Below are positions 29,101 through 58,512 of a stretch of 58,515 nucleotides of DNA, one piece after another (the stretch's first letter is position 1; each line of letters begins with the position of its first letter). Made by a program: the position numbers and the translations under genes. Source of the stretch: a virus (taxonomy: Duplodnaviria > Caudoviricetes); IMG/VR virus record IMGVR_UViG_3300026105_000002, positions 1 to 58,515 of that record; one strand, written 5' to 3'. The notes beneath the pieces are model-generated. The model ran no database searches. It was not told where the DNA came from and was given only the letters and a program-made list of their open reading frames with translations.

Positions 29101-29547
29101 CTCTTCTCGAACATCTACTAGGGTTCCGCCAAAGGAGGACCCTCCTTGCTCGGCTTCTTGGAGGGCTGCACCAATACCGCCTAAACCAAGTCGAGCTGCG
29201 GCTAGTCCGGCAGGAAAAGCAGCCACCACACCGCTTAGGGCTCCTAGTGATGCAGCCGCACCTCCAGCCGCACCAACTAAGGAACCCAAACTGACTACAA
29301 CTGAGCTAATAGCTCCGCCCAAAGAACCAATTACGCCCTGAAAAACAAACCCAGCGCGGGAAAGGGCTTGTAGCTTTAATCTAGCAGCTGCTGCTTCTTG
29401 ACTAAAACCTTTATCAAGGCTTCGGCCCATATCTTTTCCGGCTTTTTCGACCGAACCGCTAAGTCCTCTTAGGCCTCGCTCGATATCAGGCTTAACCTGA
29501 GTAGTGATGGCGCGTACGACAATTTTGGCTTCGCCGACTACTGCCAT
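26125..29547 (-). CDS. Tape measure protein
   Basis: MAVVGEAKIVVRA start; Ala/Gly/Leu-rich helical; hydrophobic segments; GGFISGPGTGRSDSIPALLSNGEFVVN C-terminal motif. Confidence 0.92.
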   Translation of the reverse strand: MAVVGEAKIVVRAITTQVKPDIERGLRGLSGSVEKAGKDMGRSLDKGFSQEAAAARLKLQALSRAGFVFQGVIGSLGGAISSVVVSLGSLVGAAGGAAASLGALSGVVAAFPAGLAAARLGLGGIGAALQEAEQGGSSFGGTLVDVREELQQLRFEAEQASLSEDQAALNLENARNNLLRVQDLAPNSMIRRQAELDLREADLAFRRAKDRAGDLQDELANPDFSGGGGGGAAAQSAYDDLLPSQQRFVDFLRTLQPVLDDLKAASANSFLPILQTQIERLIAVEPDVGSFFGVLREGIQQSAIGLGLLVTNFTDFLVERENLQELDTIFVNIKDTLASFGTIVGNVFDSFLSITEASDSTTRRFLNFLESKTGTFAEFLDTRQASGDLESFFKRAGDLAADFGEILGNIGGFFNDLIRDSFSEESGGQILLDWLKDATQGWQDLRETVGESGFREYMAETALNSVAVLQSIGAFISEFGKLSDMPEIREAARNFMGAADSFGTIVEEAIKVSPIFADLVSNLLEIIAVFADSSAAVMFFEILETGTRAVADLLENELIADFVNFAGVLFAIGLAAGTVFKTINFFTLALVGFGQSITAGLAGIQAGLASTTVAARVASVAIRSIPFVGLAAAAVTGITILMDKINNDVISKAPVASDELTGMFNAGKTGAEVLKTALSGISGELAIADQSGLFVRPLGIAFDGAALSAGTFKEALQAVSDRFEDVRTFEDLAPIISSLPWNPVARDMREFENQLEEVGVALAGQAERDLPAATEAFKSMANELNLSDKEALALLDTMPDFRDELERQANAAGLAGTDQELLNIALQDGGDYFVTAGDAANPYIEALEGVKEAARESEERVRDLEDALFNFGSETLDARAAARQLEAQKDRLKDAVTELVEEEGSLDGALNDTRTGFDRTTDSGRNLEKEFDNLVQTLVDKAESNYELSGSEDQLREDFKAAREELERQAEELGLTEEAADNLADALLGNDYEVETTIKKITDEEVEQAFLSVEEALKRSRAMYIEVLPYSRFTDPEVANRRYGPASENPIANKDGGFISGPGTGRSDSIPALLSNGEFVVNSRATRENRQLLEMINDNRNVSMKPNVSVTVNASRGMDERELAELVSRKIAFDIRRGSI

Positions 29548-42236: not shown

Positions 42237-42614
42237 TTAATTTATAATTCGACGGCCGTATTCGTCAAATTCATTATTAACGAGCCCCATTTCTTCAAGA
42301 GTAGGTGCTTCCCCGTCTACAACAATCCTATCAGACGAAAAAGTGTTAAATACGAAAAAAACCGCGGCGTTTATGTTCTCCAGATTGGGGTTAGTGGGGA
42401 TAGAAGGCCCTTCAGGAGTGATGCTGTACTCTTCTCCAAACTCGATTTCGCGAGAAATAGCGTTTTGTTGGACACTAAACAACGCCAACTCAGAAGAAAA
42501 AGAGTTTTCTTTTGCCTTTAATCCTTCTTTTGGGTCCCAAATGAGCTCTGATTGAACATCGACATCGGGGTTTTCTGGACTAATTATGAATGTTACTGGC
42601 TTTGTATATTCCAT
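42237..42614 (-). CDS. Acidic hypothetical protein, candidate immunity partner
   Basis: Start overlaps the stop of the HExxH protein (TAATG at 42614). Confidence 0.6.
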   Translation of the reverse strand: MEYTKPVTFIISPENPDVDVQSELIWDPKEGLKAKENSFSSELALFSVQQNAISREIEFGEEYSITPEGPSIPTNPNLENINAAVFFVFNTFSSDRIVVDGEAPTLEEMGLVNNEFDEYGRRIIN

Positions 42615-45600
42615 TATCTACCGCTTCCTAACATTAATCCTAGCGCAAAACCCACAACGTCTTCATCGTATTTGCCTGTTTCATAGTCTAAACCTATATA
42701 TTTAGGATTACTAAAGACTCCTTGCATCAATGTAGTTGACACTTCTGAATTTATGTCAGAAAACAACACAAAATCTGAATATGTTTTTTGTGTATAGCTT
42801 TCTGGTGTTTCATTCTTAAAGTTTATAAATCTCTCATTTGAACCGTATAAGCTTGTGCTTGATGCGCGAGGAAATTCGGTGTCATCACCAATTGCTCGAT
42901 CAAACGCCCAGGCATGCTCAAGGGCAGAAATGTCGGCATTATTAGTTTGAGCAGCATGCCATAGCTCGTGTATGCCCACATCAAAAATAGACGGCGACTC
43001 ACCGTTCAAAGATTTAGTGTTTAATACGGTGTAGTGACCTCCTGGGCTGTAGTGGCCTCTTGTATTGCCTACGCCAACTCTTAAAGGGATGTCTCTAGAA
43101 AAGACGGACTCAATTACATTTTTTGGAATGAAAGACAAAATTTCGTTAAATTGCTCTTCATATTTTCTTTGCACGGCACGCTCATTTGCAGCATCTCTAT
43201 TTTTAGCTTTTCTCGGCCCCGTAAATACTAACTTTCCATCGTCAACTAGTTGCTTTGCTGTAAAACCACCAAACTCAACTCCGCTGTTTTGTAGCTCTTC
43301 TTTGATTAAATTTTTTCTCAGAGTTTGTAGTTCTCGAAGAGAAGCATTTTTTTCTTCTCTAAGCTCCCTCAAGGTTTCTCTCTCCGCATTTACAGTGTCG
43401 GCATATTTTTTAGTTGCTTCTTTAAAATTAGCGTACACCTCCCCTAATTCCGAATAACCTTCAAAATTTCCAGATTCGAATTCTCTATTTAACTTCCTTG
43501 CTTCTGCAACATCTTCAATTGAGTTTAAAACTTCCGCTTTTTTATCGCTATAGGCATCAAGAGCCACGCCTCGATCTTTTATTGCTTCAAACTGAAGTTC
43601 ATCAAATTCTTTTTTTGCTTCTACTTCTCTACCTGCAATGTTGTTGTGCTGAGAAATTTTTTGAACGTATTCCTCGTTAGAAAAAACTCTTTGAGCGACT
43701 TGCGAACCTTCTTCAGTAAGTTCGTTTTTTAAGTCTCTAGCTTGAGGAGTTGGCTTCAAGGCAGCTTTTTCAGAACGAGAACCTGACTCTGTTTTAATAA
43801 AGTTTTCAGTCTCTGTCACACCAGAAGAAACTATGCTTATATATTCTTCTGACTGTCCTGGCGATTTTCCTACAAATTTGTTAGCTAAAGAACTATTACT
43901 GACGCTTACGGCTCCTGACTGTACTCCCGATCGAGTAGTAGTCTCGGGAGAAGTTTCGCTTCCGCCGCGTCCGCCTAGTGGAGGTAGGTCATCTGGCTCA
44001 GAGCCGTCTGGTCCTGGATTTTCGCTCGGCCCGTCTTCACCTTCGTCAGGGTCAAAAATATCTTTGTAAACCGCGAGGTCAATGTTGTATCGCTCGGCCC
44101 TGCGTTCTACTAGATCTTCACCCTCTACCCTGCCCGTATAGTTGGTTAGAGGAGTATCGTCATCAGTTGGCTCCATGTATTTAGTAGCAAGAATATTTAC
44201 TTCGGTTCCATCTTCAAAACGAACTCGAACGGTGTCGTGATAGTCATTAGGCCCTGAGTTAGGGTTCAGTGCGCTAACAATACCAACAGACTCATCGCCT
44301 TCGTTGTTTGTGTAACGAACACGCATTCCCGGAGTAATACGGGTGTTCCCGTCTTTAGCGGAGTATGGGATTCTGCCTAAGTTGTTTATATCAAAACGAC
44401 CGTTTTTAATTGCTCTTTCAAGATTATTAGCAAGCGTAGCTCGTCTTTGACCTTCCCCTGTACCATTATACCTGTCTGAAGTCTGACTTCTAAGGATTTT
44501 AATCATTTCGGCGCGCGCTGCTTGGTTGTCCGGAAGCCTTCCTAAAACAGAAATTAGCCTCTGAGTAAAAGCATCACTATCATCCGCATTTACCGCATCC
44601 CAAAAAGAAGGAATTTCATCTTGCAACTGCGTGAGTAGCGGGAGGCCGGTCTCAGGATTAGTAGAGATGTTTAGCTTTTGAGCCCTTCCCTCTAGATACT
44701 TAGTAATTAATTCTTCCTGAGTGAGAAGCTTCATGTTTGGGTTGTTTAAGTCAGCGTTGTTGGCTCTTCCGCGAAAAAACTTAATTCTATCTTGAAGAGT
44801 CTTATCATCTCCAAAATACCGAGCTGTTTGAGTAGTCATTGAGCCTGGTATGGCACGACCTAAGAGTTGATCACGGAAAACTACTATACCGTTAGTCTTA
44901 CCGTGGAGCGATGCATAAGAATCTTTGTAATCGTAGTGGTAGAATTCTTGCTTTTCACCCGTTTCAGAATTCGTAAACGTGTACCGCTCCAAGAACCCGT
45001 TACCGTATGTCTTGGCAACAGCAATTTCATAATCATACTCTGTGCCATCATTGTCCGTAAATTTTTTACGCTCAACGATAATCTCGCCGCGGTCGTTGAT
45101 TTTTGCTTCGGGGTAGTCTTCAAGAAGTTGTTGAATTATCGCGTCAGGGTTCGTAATTGTTTTATATTTAGGTCTGCCCTTTTTATCTTCGCCTACCTGA
45201 ATCCTAAGGGCTTTCCCGGTTTCTGGGTCAATTAAAGGTTTTACTTTAGTTTTATTTAACTCTTCACGAGTTTTAGTGGAGGGGTTGATCTCTCCGCCAT
45301 CATCTTCTCTACCTTCTTCTCGAGCTCTAGCAAGAAAAGTTTCTTGTGTAGCACGCTCTGGGTAGGGCTCTCTAGTGCGTCGACTTTTTCGACGAGGTGG
45401 CTTAGGCGTGGGGGTAGGTTCTGGATCGGGAGTAGGCTCTGGAGTAGGCTCTGGCGTTGGCGGCTCGGGCTCACCCTTCCTTCCCTGAATAACATCCATT
45501 TCCTGAGATTGACGAACATTAAAACGTCTTTCTTGCCCATTACTGTCTGTAATGTCAACGTCAAAAGTTTTTAATCCATCTTTGTCAGGACCAGGTGTGA

Positions 45601-46726
45601 CAGACTTAACGACTGCCTCTTCCCCGGAAGGGAGTTTAAGAATATCATTTTCTTCTAGTTCAGGCGGAAATTTAATGGCGGTGGTTTCTTCAGGCTCTTG
45701 CAGGAAGTCATCAACATCTTTAGTTGGACCACCATAAAGTATTGCTTCTTCTACATAAGCATCAACAGGGTCTTTGTCTAGATTAATTTCGCCAGACTCT
45801 TCTACTGACTTCTCATTTAATTCTTCTTTAATGCTTGCTTTTGCTGCCTCTATGCGATCGGCCTCTGCTTGATCAAACATCAAACTAGAAATTTCTTTTT
45901 TTGTGAATCCTAGATCTTCAGCTTCTTGAGAAGTAAGTTTTCTGCCAAGAGCTGCCTCTACTTTTCTTCTATTTCTGTCGCGTTGATTCTCCATTGCTTG
46001 CTCTGTTGGAGAAGGCCCGCCATCTATAAGCTGCCTGGTATTTTGAGCATCAAATAAGGCTTTACTACCTGCCTCATCAAGTTTGTTTGGGTCATCAATT
46101 AAATCAGTTACATCTGTTTTTTCGGGGTCAAACTCGTCTGGGTCAATTCCAGACTCACGAAGCATTTCACGAGCTTCGTCTTGGTTAAGCGACTCGAAGC
46201 CGCCAGGAAGTTCTGCAAGTGGTGACTCTTCTCTACCTGCCTGCTCTGCTTCTTGCTCTTCTTCGGTCAACTCACCGCGAGCAAGACGCTCGTCGTTTTC
46301 AGTGATGTCTTGACGAGTAGCTTTAAATTCTTCTAGTGAAGGAAGGTCTGCATCAGATATTGAGCGCTGATTACCAAAGTCGTCCTCATATTCAAGGTCA
46401 AGACCACGTTCTTCAAGAAATTCCTCTGGTAGTTTTGCTTTAAAAGTGTCTAAGTTGTGCGACTGAACAGTGTATACACCATCTTCTACACCAGATTCGT
46501 CTCTAACCAAGACTCGTGCCTCGCCTGGTCGTCCTGTAGGACCAACATAACGTCCAGCAATAGATTTGAGGTCGCCTTTTAGGTTTCGAAACATTGACTT
46601 AACAGCGGCCCCCATGATAATCCAACGACCCCTTCTGTCACGAGGCTGGATTCTCCAAAAGCCCTTGTTGGCTCCGTCGTTTACTCCAATAAATGCAACA
46701 AGAGCTTTCAAGTCGTCAGAGTTCAT
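42614..46726 (-). CDS. Large head-region protein: shared N-terminal domain, SH3-like modules and a C-terminal HExxH metallopeptidase-like domain
   Basis: GANKGFWRIQPRDRRGRW; PEPTP linker; RGHY...IHELWH...EH...YTQKTY...SEVST. Confidence 0.7.
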   Translation of the reverse strand: MNSDDLKALVAFIGVNDGANKGFWRIQPRDRRGRWIIMGAAVKSMFRNLKGDLKSIAGRYVGPTGRPGEARVLVRDESGVEDGVYTVQSHNLDTFKAKLPEEFLEERGLDLEYEDDFGNQRSISDADLPSLEEFKATRQDITENDERLARGELTEEEQEAEQAGREESPLAELPGGFESLNQDEAREMLRESGIDPDEFDPEKTDVTDLIDDPNKLDEAGSKALFDAQNTRQLIDGGPSPTEQAMENQRDRNRRKVEAALGRKLTSQEAEDLGFTKKEISSLMFDQAEADRIEAAKASIKEELNEKSVEESGEINLDKDPVDAYVEEAILYGGPTKDVDDFLQEPEETTAIKFPPELEENDILKLPSGEEAVVKSVTPGPDKDGLKTFDVDITDSNGQERRFNVRQSQEMDVIQGRKGEPEPPTPEPTPEPTPDPEPTPTPKPPRRKSRRTREPYPERATQETFLARAREEGREDDGGEINPSTKTREELNKTKVKPLIDPETGKALRIQVGEDKKGRPKYKTITNPDAIIQQLLEDYPEAKINDRGEIIVERKKFTDNDGTEYDYEIAVAKTYGNGFLERYTFTNSETGEKQEFYHYDYKDSYASLHGKTNGIVVFRDQLLGRAIPGSMTTQTARYFGDDKTLQDRIKFFRGRANNADLNNPNMKLLTQEELITKYLEGRAQKLNISTNPETGLPLLTQLQDEIPSFWDAVNADDSDAFTQRLISVLGRLPDNQAARAEMIKILRSQTSDRYNGTGEGQRRATLANNLERAIKNGRFDINNLGRIPYSAKDGNTRITPGMRVRYTNNEGDESVGIVSALNPNSGPNDYHDTVRVRFEDGTEVNILATKYMEPTDDDTPLTNYTGRVEGEDLVERRAERYNIDLAVYKDIFDPDEGEDGPSENPGPDGSEPDDLPPLGGRGGSETSPETTTRSGVQSGAVSVSNSSLANKFVGKSPGQSEEYISIVSSGVTETENFIKTESGSRSEKAALKPTPQARDLKNELTEEGSQVAQRVFSNEEYVQKISQHNNIAGREVEAKKEFDELQFEAIKDRGVALDAYSDKKAEVLNSIEDVAEARKLNREFESGNFEGYSELGEVYANFKEATKKYADTVNAERETLRELREEKNASLRELQTLRKNLIKEELQNSGVEFGGFTAKQLVDDGKLVFTGPRKAKNRDAANERAVQRKYEEQFNEILSFIPKNVIESVFSRDIPLRVGVGNTRGHYSPGGHYTVLNTKSLNGESPSIFDVGIHELWHAAQTNNADISALEHAWAFDRAIGDDTEFPRASSTSLYGSNERFINFKNETPESYTQKTYSDFVLFSDINSEVSTTLMQGVFSNPKYIGLDYETGKYDEDVVGFALGLMLGSGR

Positions 46727-47283: not shown

Positions 47284-49198
47284 CTTCTCTCTCTTTCGGA
47301 AGTAGGTCAGCATCAGGACTTTCATACAAAGCGGCAGCTAGAAGTGCAGCCCTGTTGAACGGGTCCTCATTATTGGCCAGTCCTCGTAGCCAAGCTGCCC
47401 TAAAGCTAGGAAGGGCTTCGTAGCCTAAGCCAGCAAACTCAGTTATTGAAAAAATAGCATGCTCGTCAGAAGCATATTCTTTTCTCGAAAGCAGTCTTAC
47501 CTCTAGTTGGTCCTCTAGATACGCACTAGCGGCAATAGAATTGCTCTTCTTTGTAGAACGCTTATGGGCCGAAGGAAGCAGGTCGTTATCTTGAACATAC
47601 TTCTTGTTCTTCGGGTTTCCGTTTCGCAGTAAATATAGGAAAGCGTTTACTCTAGCCATTGACCACGAGTTTCTGTTTTGGTCTGGACGATGTGAAGTTG
47701 AGAAAGCGCCAGCACCACGACGGTAAACAGCTTTTAGAGTGCGAAGATTTGTTTTCTTGCTCTTTGCATCTCCGTGCTTTTCGTTGTGCTCTTCTACCTT
47801 ATTCTCTAAAGCCTTAGTTACTCTTTTAGAAAAGTTAATCTTTTTACCGCCCGAAGCAGAACCTTTTTTATTCTTCTTAGAGCCCTTACGGCGCTCGCTA
47901 GGTTCAGCTGGCTTGGAGCCTGCTGTTGCAGTTACGGTTTCGTCAGTTACGGGTCCGCCAGCTGCCCATGCGTTACAAGTTCTTTCAGACGCGCACTTGA
48001 AATCAAGAGCGTTGCAGTATCCAACTTCTCCAGCCGCGATTGAACCTTCTGCACCTTCACCGTCTGTTCCAATGCCTTCTTCAATACAATTTAGCATTTC
48101 GGTAGTGCGAACAAAGAATATGCAATTTCCGCAGACAGCAGTTTTTGCTTCTTCTGGTTCAATGTCCCATCGGTCAGCTTTGTCTTCCCAGAACTCCTCG
48201 TTTGGTTCGGCTGGGTTTAGCGGTCCGTACCCCACGTTGTCAATCGCGTTTTGACGGTTTTTTAGGTTTAATTCAACATCTTGAGTTGCGGGTGGACAGT
48301 TTTCTGCAGCGGCTGCAGTAATAACTGGGCCTCGGTAAACTCTTGCCTCTATGCCCTCCATGCCGTCCATAAGACGAACCGCACAACGGTGATGACCGTC
48401 AACAAGCTTTTTGCCTTCTGAATCAATATAGACAATTACTGGCTTGTTGTACTTTTTTGTGTCTTTAAAGTTTTCTGTCTTAACAACTTCTTGAGTCGGA
48501 ATAAGGTCTTTTATTTCAAGATAGGTTTCTTGATACTCGCCCTTCATTTCCTTAATTTTCTCTTTTAGCTCATATTGCTCAAGTTTAGGAGATTTCTCAA
48601 AAAGCTCTTTTACGGGTTTTTCGCCTTTATCTTGTTCTACTACTCCATCTGGGATAACAGCCAATCTGCAAAGTCCGCCTTCTTCGGTAGTTGCCTCTAC
48701 AATCTTGCAACCGTTAGGAGCGTCCCAAAAAATGCAACTTCCGCACTTAACGCCAAAATCTTTGTTATCGTTTTCTGCAGCAGGAGTGTAGCCAGCCCAA
48801 ACGCCCGTGTCATCAGCATTGAACTTGCCATGCTTTTTAGTTATTTTAAGTAGAGCTTTAGCAAACTCTTGCTCTTCAGGAATTAGATATCCTGCAGCTA
48901 CCAAAGCTTCTTTTGATTCTTGTTGATTCTTTTCTGTAATATGTGAAGATGCTTCGTTGGCTGGTACGCAGTTGGGGACCTCTTTGCCGTCTTTCATCTT
49001 CATACCAATTTGAACATATCCGTCCCAACAGGGGTTATCTGATGCAGCTTCGTTGTCGTGAGCGTCGTCACGCATAAGAGTTCCGTCAGGCATATAGTGG
49101 TAGCCTTCAGGAGCTTCTTTTTCGCCTGCTTTTAGATTCTCAGCAGGGGCAGCATGGCCACCAGAAGCTTTAATAATTTTTTCTACGTAGTCAGACAT
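47276..49198 (-). CDS. Multimodule head-region protein (CWxGY motif, HiPIP-like Cys cluster, ParB/Srx-like domain, Cys-rich domain, basic C-terminal domain)
   Basis: PCWDGYVQIG..VPNCVP; KCGSCIFW..GCKIV..GLCR; LIPTQ...VDGHHR; CPPATQD...CGNC...FKCASERTCNAW; KAVYRRGAGAFSTSHRP. Confidence 0.65.
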   Translation of the reverse strand: MSDYVEKIIKASGGHAAPAENLKAGEKEAPEGYHYMPDGTLMRDDAHDNEAASDNPCWDGYVQIGMKMKDGKEVPNCVPANEASSHITEKNQQESKEALVAAGYLIPEEQEFAKALLKITKKHGKFNADDTGVWAGYTPAAENDNKDFGVKCGSCIFWDAPNGCKIVEATTEEGGLCRLAVIPDGVVEQDKGEKPVKELFEKSPKLEQYELKEKIKEMKGEYQETYLEIKDLIPTQEVVKTENFKDTKKYNKPVIVYIDSEGKKLVDGHHRCAVRLMDGMEGIEARVYRGPVITAAAAENCPPATQDVELNLKNRQNAIDNVGYGPLNPAEPNEEFWEDKADRWDIEPEEAKTAVCGNCIFFVRTTEMLNCIEEGIGTDGEGAEGSIAAGEVGYCNALDFKCASERTCNAWAAGGPVTDETVTATAGSKPAEPSERRKGSKKNKKGSASGGKKINFSKRVTKALENKVEEHNEKHGDAKSKKTNLRTLKAVYRRGAGAFSTSHRPDQNRNSWSMARVNAFLYLLRNGNPKNKKYVQDNDLLPSAHKRSTKKSNSIAASAYLEDQLEVRLLSRKEYASDEHAIFSITEFAGLGYEALPSFRAAWLRGLANNEDPFNRAALLAAALYESPDADLLPKEREDE

Positions 49199-49656
49199 TA
49201 CCTAATCCCCATTGACGCTTTTAGTTGCCAGTTCCATTTGTTGTGCATATCTATTCTACCGCCTACAAAATCAACCAATCCTTGCTCGTTGCATTGATCA
49301 GCTTTTTTAATTAAGGTGTAGTAGCAATCAATGGTTTTTTGGTTAGCTCTTTGTAAAGACTCGATCATAGCCGCAACGCCATTAGAGCCAGTGAGCCTAG
49401 GCTCGTCGATACATGTTAGGTCTGTAAAATCTCCCAGCAGGTAAGGGGAGTCATAGCCTAATTTAAGAATGCTCTCTGCAAGAGGGTCTACAGAAGCATC
49501 AAGGTCTTCATAGATTTCTTCGAAGAAGTCATGGTATTGAGAGAACTCTATTCCCATAACATTCCAGTGATACCCGTGAGCAAGTGATCGTAGTACTACT
49601 ACGTCACCTAATTGATGTGCGGTTTGTTCAGCTAGTTCTTTTGTGTTATCGTGCAT
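49198..49656 (-). CDS. dps: Dps/ferritin-like protein
   Basis: HGYHWNVMG..F..YHDFFEEIYE..DPLAE ferroxidase signature; ends KWNWQL. Confidence 0.88.
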   Translation of the reverse strand: MHDNTKELAEQTAHQLGDVVVLRSLAHGYHWNVMGIEFSQYHDFFEEIYEDLDASVDPLAESILKLGYDSPYLLGDFTDLTCIDEPRLTGSNGVAAMIESLQRANQKTIDCYYTLIKKADQCNEQGLVDFVGGRIDMHNKWNWQLKASMGIR

Positions 49657-51410
49657 TATTCCTCAGGTTCGGCTAGTCCGGGTGGTGCTTGCTGCGGCTC
49701 GGTGGGGGTTGCCTCTCCTCCGCCTCCGGAAGCCTGGTTTAGAAGATCATCAATTTCATCTGGAATTGGAGCGCCTGTAGCTTCTTGAGCTTGCTCTCTG
49801 GCTTGGCCCATAATATTAGGTGCTACAACAGACAGCAATGCCTCTGTCTGTTCAGGTGTTAGCGAGCCCTTTTGAATTAGCAAACGTAAGCTTAGCTCTG
49901 TTGGGTCTGGAGCATCTTGATCCGAGAAGCCGTGAGCGCGACGCCAAGTGTTGTAGCTAACAGCCATCTTTTCGAATCCTGAATCAGCGTCAGTTGCTCG
50001 GTCGTTACGAGTTGCAACCTGGCTTGGGTCATACCAAACGCAAAGTCTTTCAACTTCTTGCTCCGAGTAACCGTTGGCAATTAGGTATGGACGCAGATAC
50101 ATAACTGTAAGCGCATCAACAATCAAAAGCATCAGTGGCTCAATGTGTGCCTTATAAAGGCTCTCGTCGATTTGTAGGGCATTTGAGTACTTAACGTTGG
50201 CAAGACCTGAAACAACGTCTTTAGGGACATCTAGGCCCTGCATAATGCGTTCTAGGACTCTTTCTGAACGCTCAGCTAGCGCAGGGTCAAATGAGCGCTC
50301 AAACTTAAATTGTTTGATTTTGTCACCAAGCTCTCCTGGACCACGAATGATAAGTGGAACAACGGCGCTCGCAGAGTCCTCATCCTTAATCGGAGTGGTC
50401 ATAGCGTCGATTAACTGATCTTCAAAGTCGTCTGCAGCCTCTTCTGGGCTGTACTGCTCGTTGAACTCTCCATCTTCGTCATATGGGTAGTCTGGGTCAG
50501 GCCCTGCTGCAACGGACAGGCCGTCTGGCAAGTAAAGAGCACCAGCGTTCAAACGTGAACGAGCGGTGGCACGGAAGGTGCGGTTCAAAAGCAGTAGCTC
50601 TGCGCAAAGGTCTAGCAAACCACGTAGCGAGGAGTCTGACTCCTGAGTGTAGCGTGGGTGTGCTCGCCAAATACGACCAACAAATGCATCTTTAGGGAGC
50701 CGGATGTTGTCGCTACTACCAACTGACATCTGTGAGGCTCCGCCTGTGCCACCAAAGTCACGGCGAGGAATAATTACGTAATTTCCACGCTGGTCAACTT
50801 GTAATTCGTCAACTGAACGAATATCCCAGCTTTCTGGCAGCCCAGAACCGATACGCTCTGGCACTTGCGCTAGATAGCACTCACCGGTAACCTGCAAGTT
50901 CAAAGCTGCGTCTTTTAGTAGGCCTGGCTGTCCACCATAAGCAGAGCTCAGGCGGTCAAGTGCACGCTCTGCCGCAGCTGCCAATCGAGGGTCAATTGCC
51001 TCAGAATTACGAACAGGGTTAGGCGCTTCAGCTGGGTTATCAACAACTGCAGCGTAAAGACGGATGCGGGACACAACGGATGCAACTAAGTTGAATGCGT
51101 ATTTGATTTCACCAATTGCGTCGTAATATTCCCATGCTTCTGTTTGCCATGCAGTCGACGCTGACTGCCGGCGAGCCTTAAAGTACTCTGCTTCAGTCTT
51201 ATCGTCTAGTTTTACCTGTGCAGCAGCCGCAGTTAGCGGACGCGCTTGATTAAAAGCTGCCGGCTCTGCATAAACAATGCCAAAAGAGTCTATAGACACT
51301 CCAGGAGCGATGCTAGTAGCGTTTTTAGGGGCAGATGCGCGTGGTCCGACCTGCCTACGTTGCTGCTGAGACTCGTTTACTGTCTTCGAATCTTTTTTAA
51401 AAATACCCAA
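49656..51410 (-). CDS. Portal protein
   Basis: WQTEAWEYYDAIGEI, VTGECY, RIWRAHPR, RSRLNAGAL, SAVVPLII, GLDVP; downstream of the terminase. Confidence 0.85.
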   Translation of the reverse strand: MGIFKKDSKTVNESQQQRRQVGPRASAPKNATSIAPGVSIDSFGIVYAEPAAFNQARPLTAAAAQVKLDDKTEAEYFKARRQSASTAWQTEAWEYYDAIGEIKYAFNLVASVVSRIRLYAAVVDNPAEAPNPVRNSEAIDPRLAAAAERALDRLSSAYGGQPGLLKDAALNLQVTGECYLAQVPERIGSGLPESWDIRSVDELQVDQRGNYVIIPRRDFGGTGGASQMSVGSSDNIRLPKDAFVGRIWRAHPRYTQESDSSLRGLLDLCAELLLLNRTFRATARSRLNAGALYLPDGLSVAAGPDPDYPYDEDGEFNEQYSPEEAADDFEDQLIDAMTTPIKDEDSASAVVPLIIRGPGELGDKIKQFKFERSFDPALAERSERVLERIMQGLDVPKDVVSGLANVKYSNALQIDESLYKAHIEPLMLLIVDALTVMYLRPYLIANGYSEQEVERLCVWYDPSQVATRNDRATDADSGFEKMAVSYNTWRRAHGFSDQDAPDPTELSLRLLIQKGSLTPEQTEALLSVVAPNIMGQAREQAQEATGAPIPDEIDDLLNQASGGGGEATPTEPQQAPPGLAEPEE

Positions 51411-51425: not shown

Positions 51426-51716
51426 CTACCGACTGGTTTGGTCGGAAATTAGTCCAATTACTGCAGATATAGACAAAAACAATGATACCATAACAAGCCA
51501 ATCTGGCACTAGGAACCAAAAAACGCTAAAAACAAGCGCAACCCAAAAACCAGAGCACCAGTTACAAGTGAATAAATACCCGAAATAGGTGTCTGGAGGC
51601 CATTTTGCCCAAATTTTGTCTCTTAGCGGCTGAGTGACCACATCAGTCGTAACAAGCAAAGTCACTCTATAGGCCGCTAAGGCCAAAAGTATTAAAGTTA
51701 GGGCATCTGGGGTCAT
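51426..51716 (-). CDS. DUF1360-like membrane protein
   Basis: LAAYRVTLLVTTD...PLR...LFTCNWCSGFWVA, hydrophobic. Confidence 0.75.
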   Translation of the reverse strand: MTPDALTLILLALAAYRVTLLVTTDVVTQPLRDKIWAKWPPDTYFGYLFTCNWCSGFWVALVFSVFWFLVPDWLVMVSLFLSISAVIGLISDQTSR

Positions 51717-51717
51717 T

Positions 51718-52080
51718 TTAGTCCTTCATTGACATAATTGTCTTATATGGGTTCCAACCGCGAAGACGCGATCCGCAGCCGCAACCCGTGTCTTTCTTAA
51801 ATGCTAACATTTTTCCGGATGCAGTCAAAATTCTACTATCTTCGGTCGATTTCTCAGATATGTAGCTTTCGTCGTATTTTTCTTGAAAAACGATTTTTGG
51901 GCCATCAGAGGCATCTTTTGCCACAATTACATGAGTTTCGGTCAAAATTACCCTAGTTATCTCTAAATAGCTTGCTTCCGGGTTCGGCTCGTAACTACGC
52001 AATATTTCAATATCTTCAAAAGTATCGGGCCCGACGGCCGCTAAATGACACGGGAAGCGATCTAGCACTATTTTTGTCAT
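51718..52080 (-). CDS. Hypothetical protein (GCGCGS motif)
   Basis: Coupled to the terminase stop. Confidence 0.65.
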   Translation of the reverse strand: MTKIVLDRFPCHLAAVGPDTFEDIEILRSYEPNPEASYLEITRVILTETHVIVAKDASDGPKIVFQEKYDESYISEKSTEDSRILTASGKMLAFKKDTGCGCGSRLRGWNPYKTIMSMKD

Positions 52081-53498
52081 TATCTGACCCTAAACACCTT
52101 TCCACCACCTCCAGAGGTAATTCCGGGTATTTTTCGATTACCCATGCTTTTTGCACGTAGTTTTCCGCCAGAAAAGCCCGCTGGAGGTTTTATCAGCAAT
52201 GCGGTCATTGCGTGAACCATTGCGTCGATGCGGTCGGGAGATTTTCCTTCTCCAGGAACCCAGGAATACATCTGAGACTCTAAATCTTGTAAATAACCAA
52301 CGTGATGGACCCTGTGTTGCTCGTATGCAAGCACGACTGGCTCTGCTCTTAGTTGTTTTCCTTGTTTCGAGTGAACTTCAAGAACCTTAATTGACGGATC
52401 GATGGAGTTGATCGCACTTCGAACAAGAGCACCGCCCTGATTAACCTCAGCCACAACAGGGCAGCCCCAACGGCGGGCCATTTCGACCACTTTATTCGCC
52501 CATACGTCTGGTGACCCGTGAATTGAAGCATCTTCAAGAACCCACGCATGGCGCTTATAGAGGTCACTCTCGGAAGAAGACGCGCATACCACAATGCCGC
52601 ATTCGTCGCGGGGATTCTCAGCAACCGATGGGTCCACGCCAATGACACGGAGCGGAGTGTGAGCTGGATAGCGAGCCTCTCGACTGGCTTCAACCATTTC
52701 TTCATTCCAGAGCGCTCCTTCCATGTCTTCTAGCATCTCTCCATAAAGTTCCTGGCGAGCTAGAGAGGTGCCTTCATATACTCCAGTAATAGTGTCTAGA
52801 TATGCGCCGGACAAGTTTCCGGCATTGTCCATGGTGGAACCTTTTGTGATAACTACCTTTGAACCACCTTCTTTTTCCAGCTTAGATTCTTCAATAAGCT
52901 TATAAAGGAGAGGCACTCGCTTAGGTGTTGTGGTTACAACCATCTGTGGATTCTTGCCAAGACGGGTTCCAACTCGCAAGTTATCAAACGCGGTCATACC
53001 TGCAGCATCTGGGGTCTGACGCCAAGCTGCGATCTCGTCGCCCCATGCGTGTGTGAATTGTGGACCACGCAAACCGTCAGGTTCGTCAGCGGTAAAAAGA
53101 GAAGCCGTGTTTCCATTAGGCCAAGTGAGACGTCGCTTGGACGGCTCGTAGTGGGGCTTCTCGCTCGGGGGCGAAATGTTAATAATTCCAGACTCGCCTT
53201 CAACAATAACGTCACGAACGTCAGCTGCGGTACGAGCAACGAGTGCGAATCGACGCTGACCAGTGTTTGTGTATTTGGCTTGCTCACGGACCCACTCAGC
53301 GGCGAGGCGAGTCTTGCCGAAACCACGACCTGCCATTACAAGCCAGATGTTCCAATCGACTCCCGCAGGGGCAATTTGCTCTGGACGCCCCCAGATGGAC
53401 CAGTCCCAAAGGAGTTGCTCCTCATCGAGACCTTCTAATGCTTCTGCGCGCTCTTCCTCGGGGAGAAGAGCAAGCTGCTCCATAATACTTTTTCCCAT
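52080..53498 (-). CDS. terL: Terminase large subunit
   Basis: AGRGFGKT Walker A, LRGPQF..AWGDE, TTTP, RQELYGE, VIGVDP, AEVNQGG, SPDRIDA. Confidence 0.95.
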   Translation of the reverse strand: MGKSIMEQLALLPEEERAEALEGLDEEQLLWDWSIWGRPEQIAPAGVDWNIWLVMAGRGFGKTRLAAEWVREQAKYTNTGQRRFALVARTAADVRDVIVEGESGIINISPPSEKPHYEPSKRRLTWPNGNTASLFTADEPDGLRGPQFTHAWGDEIAAWRQTPDAAGMTAFDNLRVGTRLGKNPQMVVTTTPKRVPLLYKLIEESKLEKEGGSKVVITKGSTMDNAGNLSGAYLDTITGVYEGTSLARQELYGEMLEDMEGALWNEEMVEASREARYPAHTPLRVIGVDPSVAENPRDECGIVVCASSSESDLYKRHAWVLEDASIHGSPDVWANKVVEMARRWGCPVVAEVNQGGALVRSAINSIDPSIKVLEVHSKQGKQLRAEPVVLAYEQHRVHHVGYLQDLESQMYSWVPGEGKSPDRIDAMVHAMTALLIKPPAGFSGGKLRAKSMGNRKIPGITSGGGGKVFRVR

Positions 53499-53502
53499 AT
53501 AG

Positions 53503-53592
53503 CTAGGATATCTTCTTATCTGGCTCTGGTTTATCTTCGGACGGTTCTACTTTTTCAAAAGCATCATCTGTAAATCTATCTGCGCTACTCAT
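53503..53592 (-). CDS. 29-aa acidic peptide coupled to the ART gene (not in the ORF track)
   Basis: ATG overlaps the last ART codons (gATGAGTAG); MSSADRFTDDAFEKVEPSEDKPEPDKKIS fills the gap to terL. Confidence 0.5.
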   Translation of the reverse strand: MSSADRFTDDAFEKVEPSEDKPEPDKKIS

Positions 53593-56500
53593 CTTGTCCT
53601 ATCAGTGTTATTTCTACTTTAACGTTTACCATTCTTTCCGAGGGGTCCACAGACTCTACGCTGTCTATCCTAAACCTAGAGTTAGGCGGAAGCAATACTT
53701 CACCTTCTACGCTCCTAGGGACGGCTCCTCCCTTAGAGCCTTTGGGAATATTTATTTCAATCATATATTGCATCCCCGAAAAAGCTGTAACCACCGGGTC
53801 TCCGCTGTTTCTAGTGAATGTAGAAGTTGATAAAAATCCTTTAGATATCCACTCATCACCCGCTTCTCCGAGTGCAGCTTTTTGATATCGAACAACTTTA
53901 ATATCTTCTGGTATTTCAGTTGAATTTACTAACTCTTTTAAATCCTCTACTGCTTTAACGACTTCTTCTTTTTCGAAGTTATTATTTGATAACTCTCCGT
54001 TTCGAAGCCACTTATTTATTGTCGAGTACGGCACACCATAAGAGCCTTGCGTATACCCAAGTAATGCCAGACGTTGGTCCATATTTTGATATTCAAATTC
54101 GGGAACATCGTCTAGGTCCACTTCCCTGTATTCCGTGACTTCAGACACTTCTGGTTTGGATTCTGAAGAAATAGGCTCATCAATGTCAGAGGGGTCAAAG
54201 GTAGAGACGTGCCTAATTTTTACTCTAGTGGGTACGCTAGGATTATCACTCTTAGTTACGGACACTATTTCGTATCTACCTGATGTAACAAACTCTCCAT
54301 AGATAGCTTGCATGTCAAAGGGCATCATTGGTATTGCTTTAGCTCCTGGTTCAAGCTCATACTCGACCGGAAGGCCCCCGCCCTCTACGTCATTTCGTTG
54401 ACCCTGCCAGTATTGCTTAATTTCGTTTTGGTACATCGAAAAAGCAGAAAAAGGTAAGTCTACAGTTGCACCTTCTACGTATTTGTCTACTGTTTCTTTG
54501 TTTGTTCTGATCCCTCTAAAAACCGGAACTTCTGTTTTTGGTGAAGCTTCTACTAGTTCAAGGCCCGCAATTATTTCTTTGTCGGTAATCTTGGAAGGGT
54601 TTATTTTTGCATCCCCGTCTAAAAACTCTTTAAATCTCTCGTTTATGGCTGTAACATATTCAAAGCTGGAGGGCCAGCCTCTTACAAATTCTTCTGCATA
54701 CGAATCTATGTATCCTAATTCTTTTGCTCTTTCATCTTGCTCGTCGTTTACTATTTCTTCTGATTCTTCATCTATTTCATATACAGGTTCCCAGCCGTTT
54801 TCTTTTCCAGACTGAAGAGCACCCTCCAATATTTCCTGTAAAGCAGGAGAACCTTTAGGCTCGTCTACAGAAGTCACTTTTCTAGCATATTTAGATACAG
54901 CAGGTACTTCGTTTAGATCTGTCTCTACTGTCTCTTGTTCAACATCATTTGGGCTTCTAGGGTCCCAACCCAACTCATTTATAGAGTCTCCATCGGTCCA
55001 GAGTTCTTTGGCGGGGACCTGCATCTCGATAACTCTACCTTTGCCAAGCAGATTGCTTTGTAGGTGCTGCTGAGCGTATTTTTGCGATAGCGACACCCAA
55101 TCGCCCTCATTTATTGTGTCTACACCTTCAGGGACCGCTCTATATACCGTAACTGGAGCACCTGGCAATGCTCTTGCTAAAAGTAATGCAGTTGCACTTT
55201 CTTCGTCGGCGGCTTTCATCCCTGTTCCGTAGTTTTTTAGAACTTCTGAAAGCGTGTTCCCAAAGTTAGGCATGTTCTGCTCAATATTTTCTATTTGAAC
55301 GCTGACATCACTAAAAGGACCAGGTGCTTCGTGCGTTCCTGCGTAATCGGAACGTTCAAACGATTTTCCTGCTTTTTGTTGTACTCTTGCTTGGAAAAAA
55401 TAGTTAAAGTTTCCGTTTTCCTCACCAGTTTCTGGGTCAGTCTGCGGAACTTTTTTAATTTCGGTTATTTCTAGCTCTGAATTGCGGGGTAAAAGGACCT
55501 CGCTTTCGGCATCTCCTTGATATCCAGTGCCCTCAGGCATACCCATTGCGGTTGAGCCCTCTGGAACATCAATAGTCCAGAAAAAAGCGGAACTAGTGTG
55601 CTCGTTCATAGCATTATTTGTTGTTTCAGACCCCATTCCAGGTCCAAATTCATTAAAAGCTATAGACGCATCGTTAGAAGTAGATAAAAACTCAGGGAAA
55701 GAGACAACAGCACCTTCCTCTAGGTTTTCTAAAAACTCCATATAAGGAGACCCGGACAGTGGCATGTCCCCACGGAAAACGGTAGAGTCTTCAAAAACTT
55801 CACCATTTTCTTCAATGGCTTCGTCAATAAGGAAAATATAGTCTTTGTTTTCATCAGACGTATCCTCGTTACCGCGCAAGTGCTTGTTTATAAATCTATG
55901 ACCTTGCTGTGCATACCACTTAAGTGCTTGCAGCTGGTCGTCCTCAAAAACTTCCGCATCGTTTGGGTAAATCCTGTTTGGATTACGTCTGCGAAGTAGA
56001 CTAGTGTCGAAGTAGTCACCATCAATAATGTCTTCGTTGTATAGCTCTTCTTTTTGGTCAGAGAGTAGCGTAGCTTGCCTCTCGGACTTTTTCTCATCTA
56101 CATATGTATCATAACTTCTTGTTTTGTGGGTCATAAAGTAATCGCCACTTAGTTCTTGAATCGTAGAAAGCATTTTTAGAGTGTTGTCGAATCTATCGTT
56201 TTTGTACTCGCTGTTTTGTTTTACTCCTTGAAGAGGAGTCAAACTTGGAACATCAAGCCCGTATTTTCCGTCTGGGAGTTCAATAAATAAATTCTTTATG
56301 TTTGCAAAATTTAAAGTATTGCCTGACTCCCTGTACTCGTCATAAGAACCTTCGCCGTGAAGTCTTTCAAACATATCTTTTACGTCAGAAGACTGTAAGT
56401 CGTGCTTTTCTAGAAAGTCGTTTAGGCTATCCCCTAGATAATCGACTTTGTGAAAATCAAATTCGCCAGCCATATCAAAAAATCTGTAAGGTGTTCCACC

Positions 56501-57520
56501 AGCGTTTCTGTTAAACGATTCCCTGCCCCAATCCTTCAGCCAAGAAGCATCAAGATCTAAAATCTCTACATCACCAACTCGTTTTACTCGTCCTTTTTGG
56601 GAAGTAACGCCAGTGCCAACTGTTAGGGCATACTCGTCTTCAATCTTGCTGTAGCCAAGCATTCCGAAAAGTTCTTCAGGTTTTGCTTTAATTTCGTAGC
56701 GGCCGTTGGCTCCTTCATTGCCTCTGGTCGAAGCATAGTCAAAAGCAAAGTTTTTATCCAAGGAAACATATCCAGCCGCGGCATCTTCCTGTGAGCTTTT
56801 ATTATTTACGGAGTTTCTGTAAACCGTTATAAGTCCGTCTGGAGACATATTCAAAATATGCTCGGCGTATGCCCTATTGAGCACCCTCATCTTTTCTGGG
56901 ATTTCATCTAAGTTATTTGGAGACTGTGTAGTTGAGTCAGTTGATTGAGACACAACGTAGTCCCACATGTTTTCGAAGCTGTCAAAGTTTTCCTGAACTT
57001 CTGGAGAAGCATCGTAAACTTTTTTGTAGTCTATTCGAGCACCCTTAGCCATGTCGGTGTCTTCCCCGATTTCTTGGTTAAGACCTATTCTCGGTATAGG
57101 AAATCTTCCTTCTTCCCTAAGAGCACTTGCTACGGACCTAAGTCTGGTTTTTAGTACTTGAGAACCAGAAACGCTTTGTAAAAGAGGTTTATCTTCATTT
57201 AGCGCTTCAGAAGTTTTTTCTTCCATATAACCCTGGGGAATGATGGCCTCTACAGATTCCATTTCTGCTTCTGCAGCATCAACAGAATAAATTCCTTTAG
57301 GGAGAGCTTGATCGGATGTCTCAACTTCAATTTCGGCAAGCCCTAGATTAGTGCTACCAAGATATCTTCCAACAGCTCTACTTGGCATATCAACACCAGG
57401 AAGCTGGTATTTAAATGAAACTAAGTTGCCTTCTTGCACCCAACGGCCGTAGCGGTCACGAATCTGCTTGCGCCAATAACCTTTATTAGCACCAGAATCG
57501 CCTGGAGTGATGTCAACCAT
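53585..57520 (-). CDS. Large protein with a shared N-terminal domain and five tandem ADP-ribosyltransferase-like domains
   Basis: R-S-E triads: VYR/VSL/EDE; VFRG/FLSTS/ESE; VYRA/WVSLS/INE; VFRG/FSAFS/YGE; VVRY/FLSTS/EGE. Confidence 0.8.
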   Translation of the reverse strand: MVDITPGDSGANKGYWRKQIRDRYGRWVQEGNLVSFKYQLPGVDMPSRAVGRYLGSTNLGLAEIEVETSDQALPKGIYSVDAAEAEMESVEAIIPQGYMEEKTSEALNEDKPLLQSVSGSQVLKTRLRSVASALREEGRFPIPRIGLNQEIGEDTDMAKGARIDYKKVYDASPEVQENFDSFENMWDYVVSQSTDSTTQSPNNLDEIPEKMRVLNRAYAEHILNMSPDGLITVYRNSVNNKSSQEDAAAGYVSLDKNFAFDYASTRGNEGANGRYEIKAKPEELFGMLGYSKIEDEYALTVGTGVTSQKGRVKRVGDVEILDLDASWLKDWGRESFNRNAGGTPYRFFDMAGEFDFHKVDYLGDSLNDFLEKHDLQSSDVKDMFERLHGEGSYDEYRESGNTLNFANIKNLFIELPDGKYGLDVPSLTPLQGVKQNSEYKNDRFDNTLKMLSTIQELSGDYFMTHKTRSYDTYVDEKKSERQATLLSDQKEELYNEDIIDGDYFDTSLLRRRNPNRIYPNDAEVFEDDQLQALKWYAQQGHRFINKHLRGNEDTSDENKDYIFLIDEAIEENGEVFEDSTVFRGDMPLSGSPYMEFLENLEEGAVVSFPEFLSTSNDASIAFNEFGPGMGSETTNNAMNEHTSSAFFWTIDVPEGSTAMGMPEGTGYQGDAESEVLLPRNSELEITEIKKVPQTDPETGEENGNFNYFFQARVQQKAGKSFERSDYAGTHEAPGPFSDVSVQIENIEQNMPNFGNTLSEVLKNYGTGMKAADEESATALLLARALPGAPVTVYRAVPEGVDTINEGDWVSLSQKYAQQHLQSNLLGKGRVIEMQVPAKELWTDGDSINELGWDPRSPNDVEQETVETDLNEVPAVSKYARKVTSVDEPKGSPALQEILEGALQSGKENGWEPVYEIDEESEEIVNDEQDERAKELGYIDSYAEEFVRGWPSSFEYVTAINERFKEFLDGDAKINPSKITDKEIIAGLELVEASPKTEVPVFRGIRTNKETVDKYVEGATVDLPFSAFSMYQNEIKQYWQGQRNDVEGGGLPVEYELEPGAKAIPMMPFDMQAIYGEFVTSGRYEIVSVTKSDNPSVPTRVKIRHVSTFDPSDIDEPISSESKPEVSEVTEYREVDLDDVPEFEYQNMDQRLALLGYTQGSYGVPYSTINKWLRNGELSNNNFEKEEVVKAVEDLKELVNSTEIPEDIKVVRYQKAALGEAGDEWISKGFLSTSTFTRNSGDPVVTAFSGMQYMIEINIPKGSKGGAVPRSVEGEVLLPPNSRFRIDSVESVDPSERMVNVKVEITLIGQDE

Positions 57521-57567: not shown

Positions 57568-57759
57568 TTATGCTTCTGGCTCTATTACGGCTTCGCCTTC
57601 AACGCGTACCTCGAAAGCAGTTTCTCCAGTGTCTGTGATCTTAGACTGATCTTCAGTAGACGCTGTGCCCTCGGTTTGCCTTGCAAAAATTTCCCAGGCT
57701 TCAACAGAACTAGCTGCTTCAACGTCAAAAATAGTTCCAGAAATTATTTTATATCCCAT
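57568..57759 (-). CDS. Small hypothetical protein
   Basis: GG-TATAAT (57766-57773) 6 nt upstream of the ATG. Confidence 0.6.
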   Translation of the reverse strand: MGYKIISGTIFDVEAASSVEAWEIFARQTEGTASTEDQSKITDTGETAFEVRVEGEAVIEPEA

Positions 57760-57866: not shown

Positions 57867-58058
57867 TTAGTACTTACTTCTGTTTAGGTATATAGACCAT
57901 ATCCTGTAACCTACGTTAAGTTCAATGGTCCAAAAAGACGGATAGTGTCTGGAAGGTTTGTAGCGCTCAACTCGGATTCCATATCTGGTGGTCGGAACGT
58001 AGTGAGGCGCTAAAACCTTTTTTCTGTTTTCGTAAGTGTATCTTCTACTTATCGGCAA
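57867..58058 (-). CDS. Small basic hypothetical protein
   Basis: 63-aa ORF overlapping the end of the HTH gene; start uncertain. Confidence 0.4.
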   Translation of the reverse strand: MPISRRYTYENRKKVLAPHYVPTTRYGIRVERYKPSRHYPSFWTIELNVGYRIWSIYLNRSKY

Positions 58059-58512
58059 TTCGATTGTCCTGCTTGATTGGGGTGTAGACCTTACTCGTGG
58101 CAGAAACCGGCTGCTTATATCCGTAGCGAACTAGTCGGAAGCGTAGCGCACCATGAGTAACGCCAAGCCTCTTGGCTAGACGGTAGAGCGTGACGCCTTC
58201 AACAGTGTGAGCGTGGTTTAGTAAACGCGTATATTCTTCTGCCTCCTCGCGGTATTTGGCTCCGTTGGAACGGACCTGCTGTGCGTAGGGCTGAAGTTCT
58301 AGTAAACGCTTGAGGGTCTCGGGGCGCGGCTCGATGAACTCGCGCTTTGGCTTTTCAGGCTTAAGCGGAGGAGTGGGAATTTCAATTCCAATCTCTAGCG
58401 CATCGGTTTGCGGATTATTCTTTGCAATTTGACGAACGCGCTCACGAGTAAGGGTAGTAGCTGAAGCAACGGCTTCGTATGTCCACCCCTTCTCGCAGAG
58501 AGCTTTGATCAT
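58045..58512 (-). CDS. Twin helix-turn-helix DNA-binding protein (sigma70 region 4-like), possibly 5'-truncated
   Basis: GWTYEAVA..TTLTRERVRQI and GVTLYRLAKRLGVTHGALRFRL; the frame is open to the window edge. Confidence 0.75.
   Translation of the reverse strand: MIKALCEKGWTYEAVASATTLTRERVRQIAKNNPQTDALEIGIEIPTPPLKPEKPKREFIEPRPETLKRLLELQPYAQQVRSNGAKYREEAEEYTRLLNHAHTVEGVTLYRLAKRLGVTHGALRFRLVRYGYKQPVSATSKVYTPIKQDNRIADK

Follow-up and report, generated by a model that had tools for sequence, protein, structure and literature searches.

Three R-S-E ADP-ribosyltransferase folds of different subtypes predicted in one giant protein encoded beside a phage terminase gene

The virus record IMGVR_UViG_3300026105_000002 (Duplodnaviria; Caudoviricetes) is a linear sequence of 58,515 bases, estimated to be 34% complete, and is called the window in the following. 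Next to the gene of its large terminase (TerL) it carries a single uninterrupted open reading frame (ORF), P0001, for a protein of 1311 amino acids (aa), which raises the question how many enzymes this polypeptide contains and where they might act. An original prediction, made without database searches, proposed five tandem ADP-ribosyltransferase (ART) domains of different subtypes, here numbered ART1 to ART5 from the N-terminus, that together form a multi-warhead phage enzyme. All motifs quoted for these domains are present in this one ORF within the ranges given (Table 1). However, the evidence does not bear out a count of five, because ART1 and ART3 fail every family test that was run and the structural model of ART3 has no significant ART match. 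ART2, ART4 and ART5 remain, and these three are R-S-E ART folds of three different subtypes with intact catalytic residues, ART4 being judged from its predicted structure. We consider it fairly probable that the ORF encodes a virion-associated phage polyvalent effector, in which a conserved N-terminal module (N-module) is followed by a variable C-terminal array of ART2, ART3, ART4 and ART5.

ART2 and ART5 had been called secure, and the family searches agree. When the separate segments were compared with Pfam family PF03496 (ADPrib_exo_Tox; R-S-E clade, Alt/VIP2/C3-like; gathering score 23.4 bits), ART2 matched with an E-value (E) of 1.5e-15 (57.5 bits) and ART5 with 9.6e-18 (64.7 bits), while a second Pfam scan gave 56.6 and 56 bits, respectively. 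The catalytic sets are complete in both domains (Table 1), and the first Ser of the STS motif as well as both Glu residues of the ExE motif are invariant in all 25 PF03496-like domain copies found in this protein and its relatives. ART2 also matches phrog_802, annotated as Alt-like RNA polymerase ADP-ribosyltransferase (E 1.1e-10). Among solved sequences, ART2 comes closest to SpvB and VIP2, and ART5 to iota toxin Ia, VIP2 and C3. The two domains share a weak mutual similarity (BLASTP E 6e-5 over 46 residues), and pairwise BLASTP among the segments revealed no other. Judged from their sequences, ART2 is an SpvB/VIP2-like and ART5 an iota/VIP2/C3-like R-S-E ADP-ribosyltransferase, each with an ExE motif. 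In the R-S-E clade, ExE usually goes along with arginine as acceptor, and by analogy ART2 and ART5 probably act on arginine.

The original prediction had grouped ART4 with ART1 and ART3 as more divergent calls. This wording still fits ART1 and ART3, which stay unproven as ARTs, whereas ART4 has become secure through its predicted structure. The ART4 segment gave no match in Pfam (even at E<=10), PHROG or NCBIfam, and a profile search of the PDB sequences with the ART4 alignment returned a single, unrelated match (E>0.2). An exhaustive HMMER search with a threshold of E<=1e-3 recovered 32 representative homologues, among which 12 reached E<=1e-10, and most of the 32 are portions of large multidomain proteins. 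Ten of them were scanned with Pfam and the ART4-like part was never covered by a family; in three of the ten it lies C-terminal to Phage_Mu_F (PF04233; two above and one below the Pfam cut-off), and a fourth additionally has three PF03496 stretches. In alignment A3, comprising the query and 14 of the 32 homologues (15 sequences), R1002, F1027 and E1076 are invariant and F1027 is in most cases followed by Ser or Thr; no conserved Glu or Gln stands two residues ahead of E1076, so that neither ExE nor QxE is present. The AlphaFold2 model built from this alignment reached a mean predicted local distance difference test (pLDDT) of 89.4. Comparison of the model with the PDB by Foldseek, one of the checks suggested together with the original prediction, gave 99 matches at E<=1e-3. 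ADP-ribosyltransferases account for all 33 listed rows, among them Vis, C3bot, an ART toxin/immunity pair (6drh), VIP2, ExoS, Certhrax, Plx2a, XopAI and CPILE-a, with E-values from 1e-6 (best 1.1e-6) to 4e-5, probability 1.00 and template-modelling (TM) scores of 0.45-0.66. Superposition on C3, VIP2 and Vis yields TM 0.55-0.66, and sequence identity in the structural alignments is low (12-18%). A feature search in the ESM Atlas placed ART4 next to PF03496 clusters (score 0.95). Moreover, one domain of a related viral protein (L083, aa 1056-1175) is matched by both the PF03496-like profile (4.4e-13) and the ART4 profile (1e-3). Because the predicted structure, the ESM features and this bridging sequence coincide, ART4 is assigned on the basis of its model as a true R-S-E ART fold that represents a subtype outside Pfam and has one catalytic Glu. 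This low identity and the missing ExE/QxE set ART4 apart from C3, VIP2, iota Ia, SpvB and Vis, while ART2 and ART5 resemble that group by passing the PF03496 cut-off with R, STS and ExE.

The single Glu of ART4 bears on its activity, since it might act on another acceptor than arginine or on nicotinamide adenine dinucleotide (NAD+) itself by hydrolysis. ART-fold NAD+ glycohydrolase (NADase) effectors exist, and Tse6 is listed among the structural neighbours of the ART3 model. Hence, it could be argued that at least one ART-fold domain, above all ART4, depletes or reshapes the host NAD+ pool, in line with the lack of a conserved Glu or Gln two residues ahead of the catalytic Glu in the ART4 family. 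We regard this as unlikely. In the structural comparison ART4 is matched best by transferases (Vis, C3, VIP2 and ExoS) and not by NADases. The sequence itself offers nothing to tell the two activities apart.

Thus, the claim that the domains belong to different subtypes holds for the three ARTs, one being SpvB/VIP2-like, one iota/VIP2/C3-like and one outside Pfam. The strictly tandem order does not, because non-ART stretches separate the domains (aa 339-473, and linkers near residues 700-725 and 860-940).

ART1 and ART3 are real conserved domains of another kind, since the family alignments show little or no variation at the motif residues. We call them TVYR domains, TVYR1 and TVYR3. Among 12 diverse TVYR1 sequences, Y234-R-N236, G250-Y, A259, G273-R-Y275, E283 and D295 are invariant; E296 is nearly so, S253 is invariant in the first 11 aligned sequences but not across all 12, and the first Glu of the EDE motif is not conserved. 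In the 47-sequence alignment A2 of TVYR3, T791, Y793, R794, P797, G806-D-W-V809, Y815, A816, E849 and G851 are nearly invariant. Such small sets of invariant polar residues make the TVYR domains look enzymatic, and they probably are enzymes; they may represent strongly reduced ART relatives. Kinship between the two TVYR families is suggestive only. Comparison of the family profiles by hhalign gave a probability of 76% (P 2.3e-5, 58 columns) when the first alignment was used, which fell to 42% when a broader one took its place, and both runs brought PDG-x-TVYR, [YW]VS and the subsequent helix into register. The ART1 profile also has weak matches in 27 viral ORFs, located within ART3-like domains in 26 of them, and each match is individually insignificant.

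A reading in which all five segments are ARTs and the TVYR domains form a reduced R-S-E-like clade, with the triads R235/S253/E296 and R794/S810/E849, would rescue the original count, but appears rather doubtful. The conserved Arg, Ser/Thr and Glu do stand at ART-like spacing, with R-to-S and S-to-E distances of 18 and 43 residues in TVYR1 and of 16 and 39 in TVYR3, compared to 20 and 43 in ART5. The AlphaFold2 model of ART3 (pLDDT 90.6) consists of three helices, a strand ending at R794, a short W-V-S strand, a helix and two strands leading to E849, which immediately precedes the last short strand and a final helix. This order of elements is ART-like, with the Glu just before a further strand; however, the strands that come after the catalytic Glu in canonical ARTs are lacking. 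The Foldseek comparison with the PDB, so clear for ART4, gave no match at E<=1e-3 for ART3 in spite of the high pLDDT. The best row was rat ART2.2 (E 0.26, TM 0.24), and all rows were insignificant, with probability <=0.13 and TM <=0.28. Twelve of the 46 listed weak rows are nevertheless ART folds, belonging to five distinct proteins (ART2.2, Tse6, Vis, ExoS and Plx2a), and this enrichment among poor matches to a predicted model can be taken as a hint. In the BFVD database 15 matches reached E<=1e-3; each is either a phage protein that is uncharacterised or a portion of a polyvalent protein, and none has a functional characterisation.

The ART4 and ART3 families could be aligned by hhalign with the Arg strand in register (P 0.0067), and the only named ESM Atlas leads for ART1 are PARP (0.88; 16% of one cluster) and Arr-ms (0.87), both weak leads behind unnamed viral clusters (0.90). 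On the other hand, Pfam scans at E<=5 of the 47 ART3-alignment and the 12 ART1-alignment members returned scattered chance matches and no ART family. ART3 itself had no Pfam match at E<=10, PF03496 included, and no useful one in NCBIfam at E<=1, and ART1 had none in Pfam (E<=10) or NCBIfam (E<=1) and no useful one in PHROGs (E<=1). Profile searches of PDB sequences gave nothing for the ART3 alignment and three unrelated matches (E>0.2) for ART1. Alignment of either domain with the PF03496-like profile by hhalign reached a probability of <=0.5%, and the profile iterated from the relatives picks up neither ART1 nor ART3. The variable first Glu of EDE and a second TVYR1 copy without the motif in one relative (L086) also argue against a five-ART protein, as does the finding that an R-S-E ART, detected with the profiles from this analysis, accompanies TVYR3 in only 4 of 75 ORFs.

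These 75 ORFs stem from a pattern scan that located TVYR3 in 75 IMG/VR loci. They comprise 24 proteins of <=300 aa and 32 of >=1000 aa, many of the long ones being cut by locus ends. Ten of them were scanned with Pfam, and the TVYR3 domain itself was never covered; its neighbours are ART-PolyVal, GNAT, LPD23, lysozyme or PF03496 domains. PF18760 (ART-PolyVal) adjoins TVYR3 and does not overlap it, for example in L012, where PF18760 spans residues 105-336 and TVYR3 348-477. In species-representative bacterial and archaeal genomes, a single narrow pattern derived from a smaller alignment found two TVYR3 loci. One viral ORF (L021:2395-5961) has three TVYR3 copies, and two matches were seen in eleven further ORFs. 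ART3 also shares 38-40% identity with small ORFs from about 160 mycobacteriophage records, and it matches positions 337-464 of the 472-position profile phrog_2579 (E 1.9e-31). This profile carries the label ParB C-terminal domain, which is merely an annotation and is uninformative for TVYR3, as the protein gp129 (129 aa) of Cjw1, a mycobacteriophage of the cluster-E type, is encoded by a solitary gene in a stretch of small genes, and ParB is not encoded nearby. A BECR/PBECR ribonuclease fold, prompted by a weak BFVD match at rank 17 annotated as MuF C-terminal domain-containing, was likewise considered and found unsupported. PBECR domains have been described as an N-terminal helix bearing a His, after which come four or five strands, strand 4 carrying Ser/Thr (PMC5512222), which does not fit because the conserved Arg of TVYR sits at the end of strand 1. 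Furthermore, no barnase, colicin or RelE structure occurs among the 46 PDB rows listed for the ART3 model.

The notion of a polyvalent effector is supported by the layout of the protein and by the position of its gene. Polyvalent proteins in the sense of Iyer, Burroughs, Anand, de Souza and Aravind (2017; PMC5512222) combine at least two distinct effector domains and are encoded among virion or packaging genes. Here three ART subtypes and two TVYR domains are joined in one chain, and the gene lies among such genes in the window as well as in all 14 related loci. Hence, the idea of a multi-warhead phage enzyme finds support, with three R-S-E subtypes in one polypeptide whose gene belongs to the packaging/head module. 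The identical protein cluster of P0001 has four members on two contigs. The N-module (aa 1-470), which is composed of the N-terminal domain, the N2 segment, TVYR1 and the Mid segment, is conserved in 10 of the 11 relatives that are not identical to P0001, at 39-53% identity, whereas the eleventh, P0013, shares the ART3 domain alone. Among the ten, the number of PF03496-like copies behind the N-module varies from none (P0012) to four. The module is present in 14 IMG/VR loci, where the proteins range from the N-module alone (478 aa) over the N-module with a TVYR3 fragment (about 590 aa) up to 3185 aa. In several relatives the counterpart of ART2 is the second or the third ART, so domains have been inserted and shuffled.

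The largest relative (L084:7736-17290; also in L085 and L086) combines the N-module with three PF03496-like ARTs and has another TVYR1-like copy at aa 989-1080, while about 1500 aa of it are without domain assignment. For two other relatives, P0003 and P0004, the precomputed Pfam family PF26816 is listed, which the local Pfam copy does not report.

The first domain of the N-module is not restricted to these proteins. It recurs at the start of the 1370-aa ORF in the same window (Table 1), on 39 further IMG/VR loci that carry this part only, mostly in proteins of 900 to over 2800 aa encoded beside the portal gene, and in phage DSL-LC01, where two ORFs shortly downstream of the portal have it. 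The 1370-aa ORF has no family match in Pfam or PHROG, and the 1508-aa ORF of the window gave no significant match with the profile of the N-terminal domain. The shared domain may serve as a packaging tag.

We suggest that incorporation into the virion is mediated by the N-module or by the first of its domains and that the protein would then enter the cell together with the DNA, by analogy with T4 Alt, where the three ARTs would use NAD+ to modify different host targets. This proposal is modelled on T4 Alt and on what has been predicted in the literature for polyvalent proteins and for ARTs whose genes lie near those of terminase and portal. ARTs packaged into the head, T4 Alt being one, are a classic phage tool for host reprogramming in the first seconds of infection. 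Instead, the protein could be made late and act in the infected cell, or be released by lysis as a polymorphic-toxin-like weapon against neighbours. MuF toxins of temperate phages have been proposed to be polymorphic toxins directed against neighbouring bacteria (PMC5576092), and the exchange of C-terminal toxin domains behind an N-terminal module that is conserved, together with ART4-like domains forming the C-terminal domains of MuF proteins, resembles that layout. This alternative is nonetheless improbable in our view. Neither a secretion signal nor a MuF domain was found, a Macro or ARH immunity gene is missing in the available 34% of the genome, and the strict placement around terminase and portal suits a virion component at least as well.

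Several results also weigh against the polyvalent, virion-associated effector that we prefer. In the collection of 50,697 isolated-phage records, from which entries very close to the window may have been excluded, no full-length relative (>=80% coverage) was found, and DSL-LC01, which has the closest portal, carries no such gene upstream of its terminase. The N-module contains no MuF, portal or other known packaging domain according to Pfam, PHROGs and NCBIfam, and no family scan provided a functional assignment for the TVYR domains. Regarding ART4, the iterated PF03496-like profile from the relatives misses the domain, and hhalign brings its R, S and E into register with that profile, yet with a probability of 13.5%; its assignment therefore rests on the predicted structure, the ESM features and the one bridging sequence. 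Finally, the absence of a Macro or ARH antidote gene from the window of this 34%-complete record counts here, too.

Even bolder is the possibility that TVYR represents a new minimal ART clade or another NAD+- or nucleotide-dependent enzyme, that the N-terminal domain is a virion-targeting tag, and that the whole protein is an injected effector with five enzymes, which at present seems rather unlikely. If it were true, the TVYR clade would be spread via phage polyvalent proteins and small mycobacteriophage proteins, and a tag of about 100 aa would load different giant effectors into the heads of a large-actinophage group.

The virion-associated polyvalent effector can be compared with several known systems. 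According to the polyvalent-protein study, ARTs are the modifying enzymes most often seen in this group and may be repeated within a chain, with as many as 12 copies in one prophage protein, the multi-copy ARTs belonging to the H-Y-D clade (Tox-ART-HYD2, Pfam ART-PolyVal) (PMC5512222). The present protein shares with them its size, the several effector domains, the position beside virion genes and ARTs as main modifying enzymes, and TVYR3 occurs in such giants together with ART-PolyVal, GNAT, LPD23 and lysozyme domains. It differs by having three different R-S-E subtypes instead of H-Y-D copies, and by an N-module and TVYR domains that are not among Pfam's families. PF18760, in which the H-Y-D residues are a His, a Tyr and an Asp in strands 1, 2 and 5, has no match in the 1311-aa protein, and one weak match below the cut-off was seen among the relatives (P0007). 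Phage ARTs near terminase or portal genes have been predicted to be packaged into the head like T4 Alt (PMC5512222, PMC9503650), and single fusions of Alt/VIP2-type ARTs to MuF are already known (PMC9503650). The likeness to T4 Alt and the MuF-fused ARTs lies in an R-S-E ART with ExE that is encoded with head or packaging genes and is predicted in these sources to be packaged and injected. However, these have one ART each compared to three ARTs and two other domains here, and with regard to MuF fusions the 1311-aa protein has no PF04233 match and a different N-terminal module. Unlike the bacterial toxin ARTs, it is encoded in a phage structural module, is no secreted toxin and comes without binding or translocation components.

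Word searches in the main texts of open-access papers revealed nothing on R-S-E ART arrays of this kind. Hence, current ideas are not overturned, rather a known theme is extended: multi-ART polyvalent proteins were known for the H-Y-D clade, and here arrays of different R-S-E (Alt/VIP2/C3-like) ARTs appear in uncultivated large phages related to actinophages, with a common N-terminal module that was previously undescribed. As by-products, the analysis yielded an ART family outside Pfam with a single catalytic Glu, also found at the ends of MuF proteins, and a widespread uncharacterised domain that databases label as ParB C-terminal domain.

Table 1. Features of the 1311-aa protein and of its genomic neighbourhood. 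Positions refer to the window, residues to the 1311-aa protein; HMM, hidden Markov model; HTH, helix-turn-helix.
Feature	Position	Strand	Residues	Remarks
ORF P0001	53585..57520	-	1311 aa	uninterrupted, stop codon included; candidate polyvalent multi-ART protein
N-terminal domain	57185..57511	-	4-112	GANKGYW...; HMM from 11 sequences
N2 segment	56930..57178	-	115-197	part of conserved N-module
ART1 = TVYR1	56513..56929	-	198-336	ITVYR 231-235; GYVSL 250-254; EDE 294-296
Mid segment	56102..56506	-	339-473	end of N-module (...FMTHKTR)
ART2	55436..55945	-	526-695	PF03496; R583, S613-T-S, E672-S-E674; FINKHLR; TVFRG 580-584; FLSTS 611-615; ESEVLLPRNS 672-681
ART3 = TVYR3	54944..55342	-	727-859	VTVYRA 790-795; DWVSLS 807-812; DGDSINELGW 843-852
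ART4	54164..54691	-	944-1119	R1002, F1027-S1028, single E1076; PVFRG 999-1003; FSAFS 1024-1028; YGEFV 1074-1078
ART5	53609..54085	-	1146-1304	PF03496; R1211, S1231-T-S, E1272-G-E1274; INKWLR; VVRY 1209-1212; FLSTS 1229-1233; EGEVLLPPNS 1272-1281
Upstream HTH gene	58045-58512			525-base gap to ART gene
Short 62-codon ORF	57569-57757	-		inside the 525-base gap
Large terminase (TerL)	52080-53498	-		downstream of ART gene; Terminase_6N/6C
120-aa ORF (p120)		-		between terminase and DUF1360 gene
DUF1360 protein	51426-51716	-		between terminase and portal, after p120
Portal	49656-51410	-		phrog_776, E 1.3e-106
Ferritin/Dps-like protein	49198-49656	-		directly after portal; PF00210, E 5e-15; phrog_3636 'DNA binding protein'
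640-aa ORF		-		after Dps-like gene, before 1370-aa ORF
1370-aa ORF	42614-46726	-		begins with the same N-terminal domain (about 100 aa) as the ART protein
Paralogous N-terminal domain	46406..46681	-		start of 1370-aa ORF; HMM E 1.1e-19; BLASTP 35% over 96 aa, E 2e-13

The head module of the related loci shows a strict gene order, namely TerL, p120, DUF1360, portal, Dps, usually a p640-like ORF, and a giant protein with the N-terminal domain. TerL is directly preceded by the N-module gene in the window and in 6 of the 14 loci, and in the window the portal lies two genes beyond this terminase; in the other 8 of 14 the N-module gene follows directly downstream of portal and Dps. An actinobacterial host is plausible on indirect grounds, because the best matches of the portal sequence are actinophages, with the Actinomycetia phage DSL-LC01 first (68.7% identity) and Microbacterium and Arthrobacter phages of 186-195 kb next. 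A search of the 525-base gap between the HTH and ART genes for minus-strand promoter or terminator patterns gave nothing convincing, and no useful match of the N2 and Mid segments was obtained from Pfam (E<=10), PHROGs (E<=1) or NCBIfam (E<=1).

Some further features of this region deserve mention. The window encodes other very large ORFs on the same strand, at 37252-41778 (1508 aa), 26125-29547 (1140 aa) and 20017-23034 (1005 aa). A Dps-like gene is an unusual member of a head module, and it occupies the same place after the portal in most related loci that show this position. The p120 and DUF1360 pair between terminase and portal is kept in nearly all related loci, and the giant proteins after the portal are in most of them homologues of the remainder of the 1370-aa ORF. 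Finally, the terminase ORF has about 818 aa in L077:5020-7473 and L113:2355-4808 compared to about 470 aa elsewhere, which may be due to an intein or another insertion.

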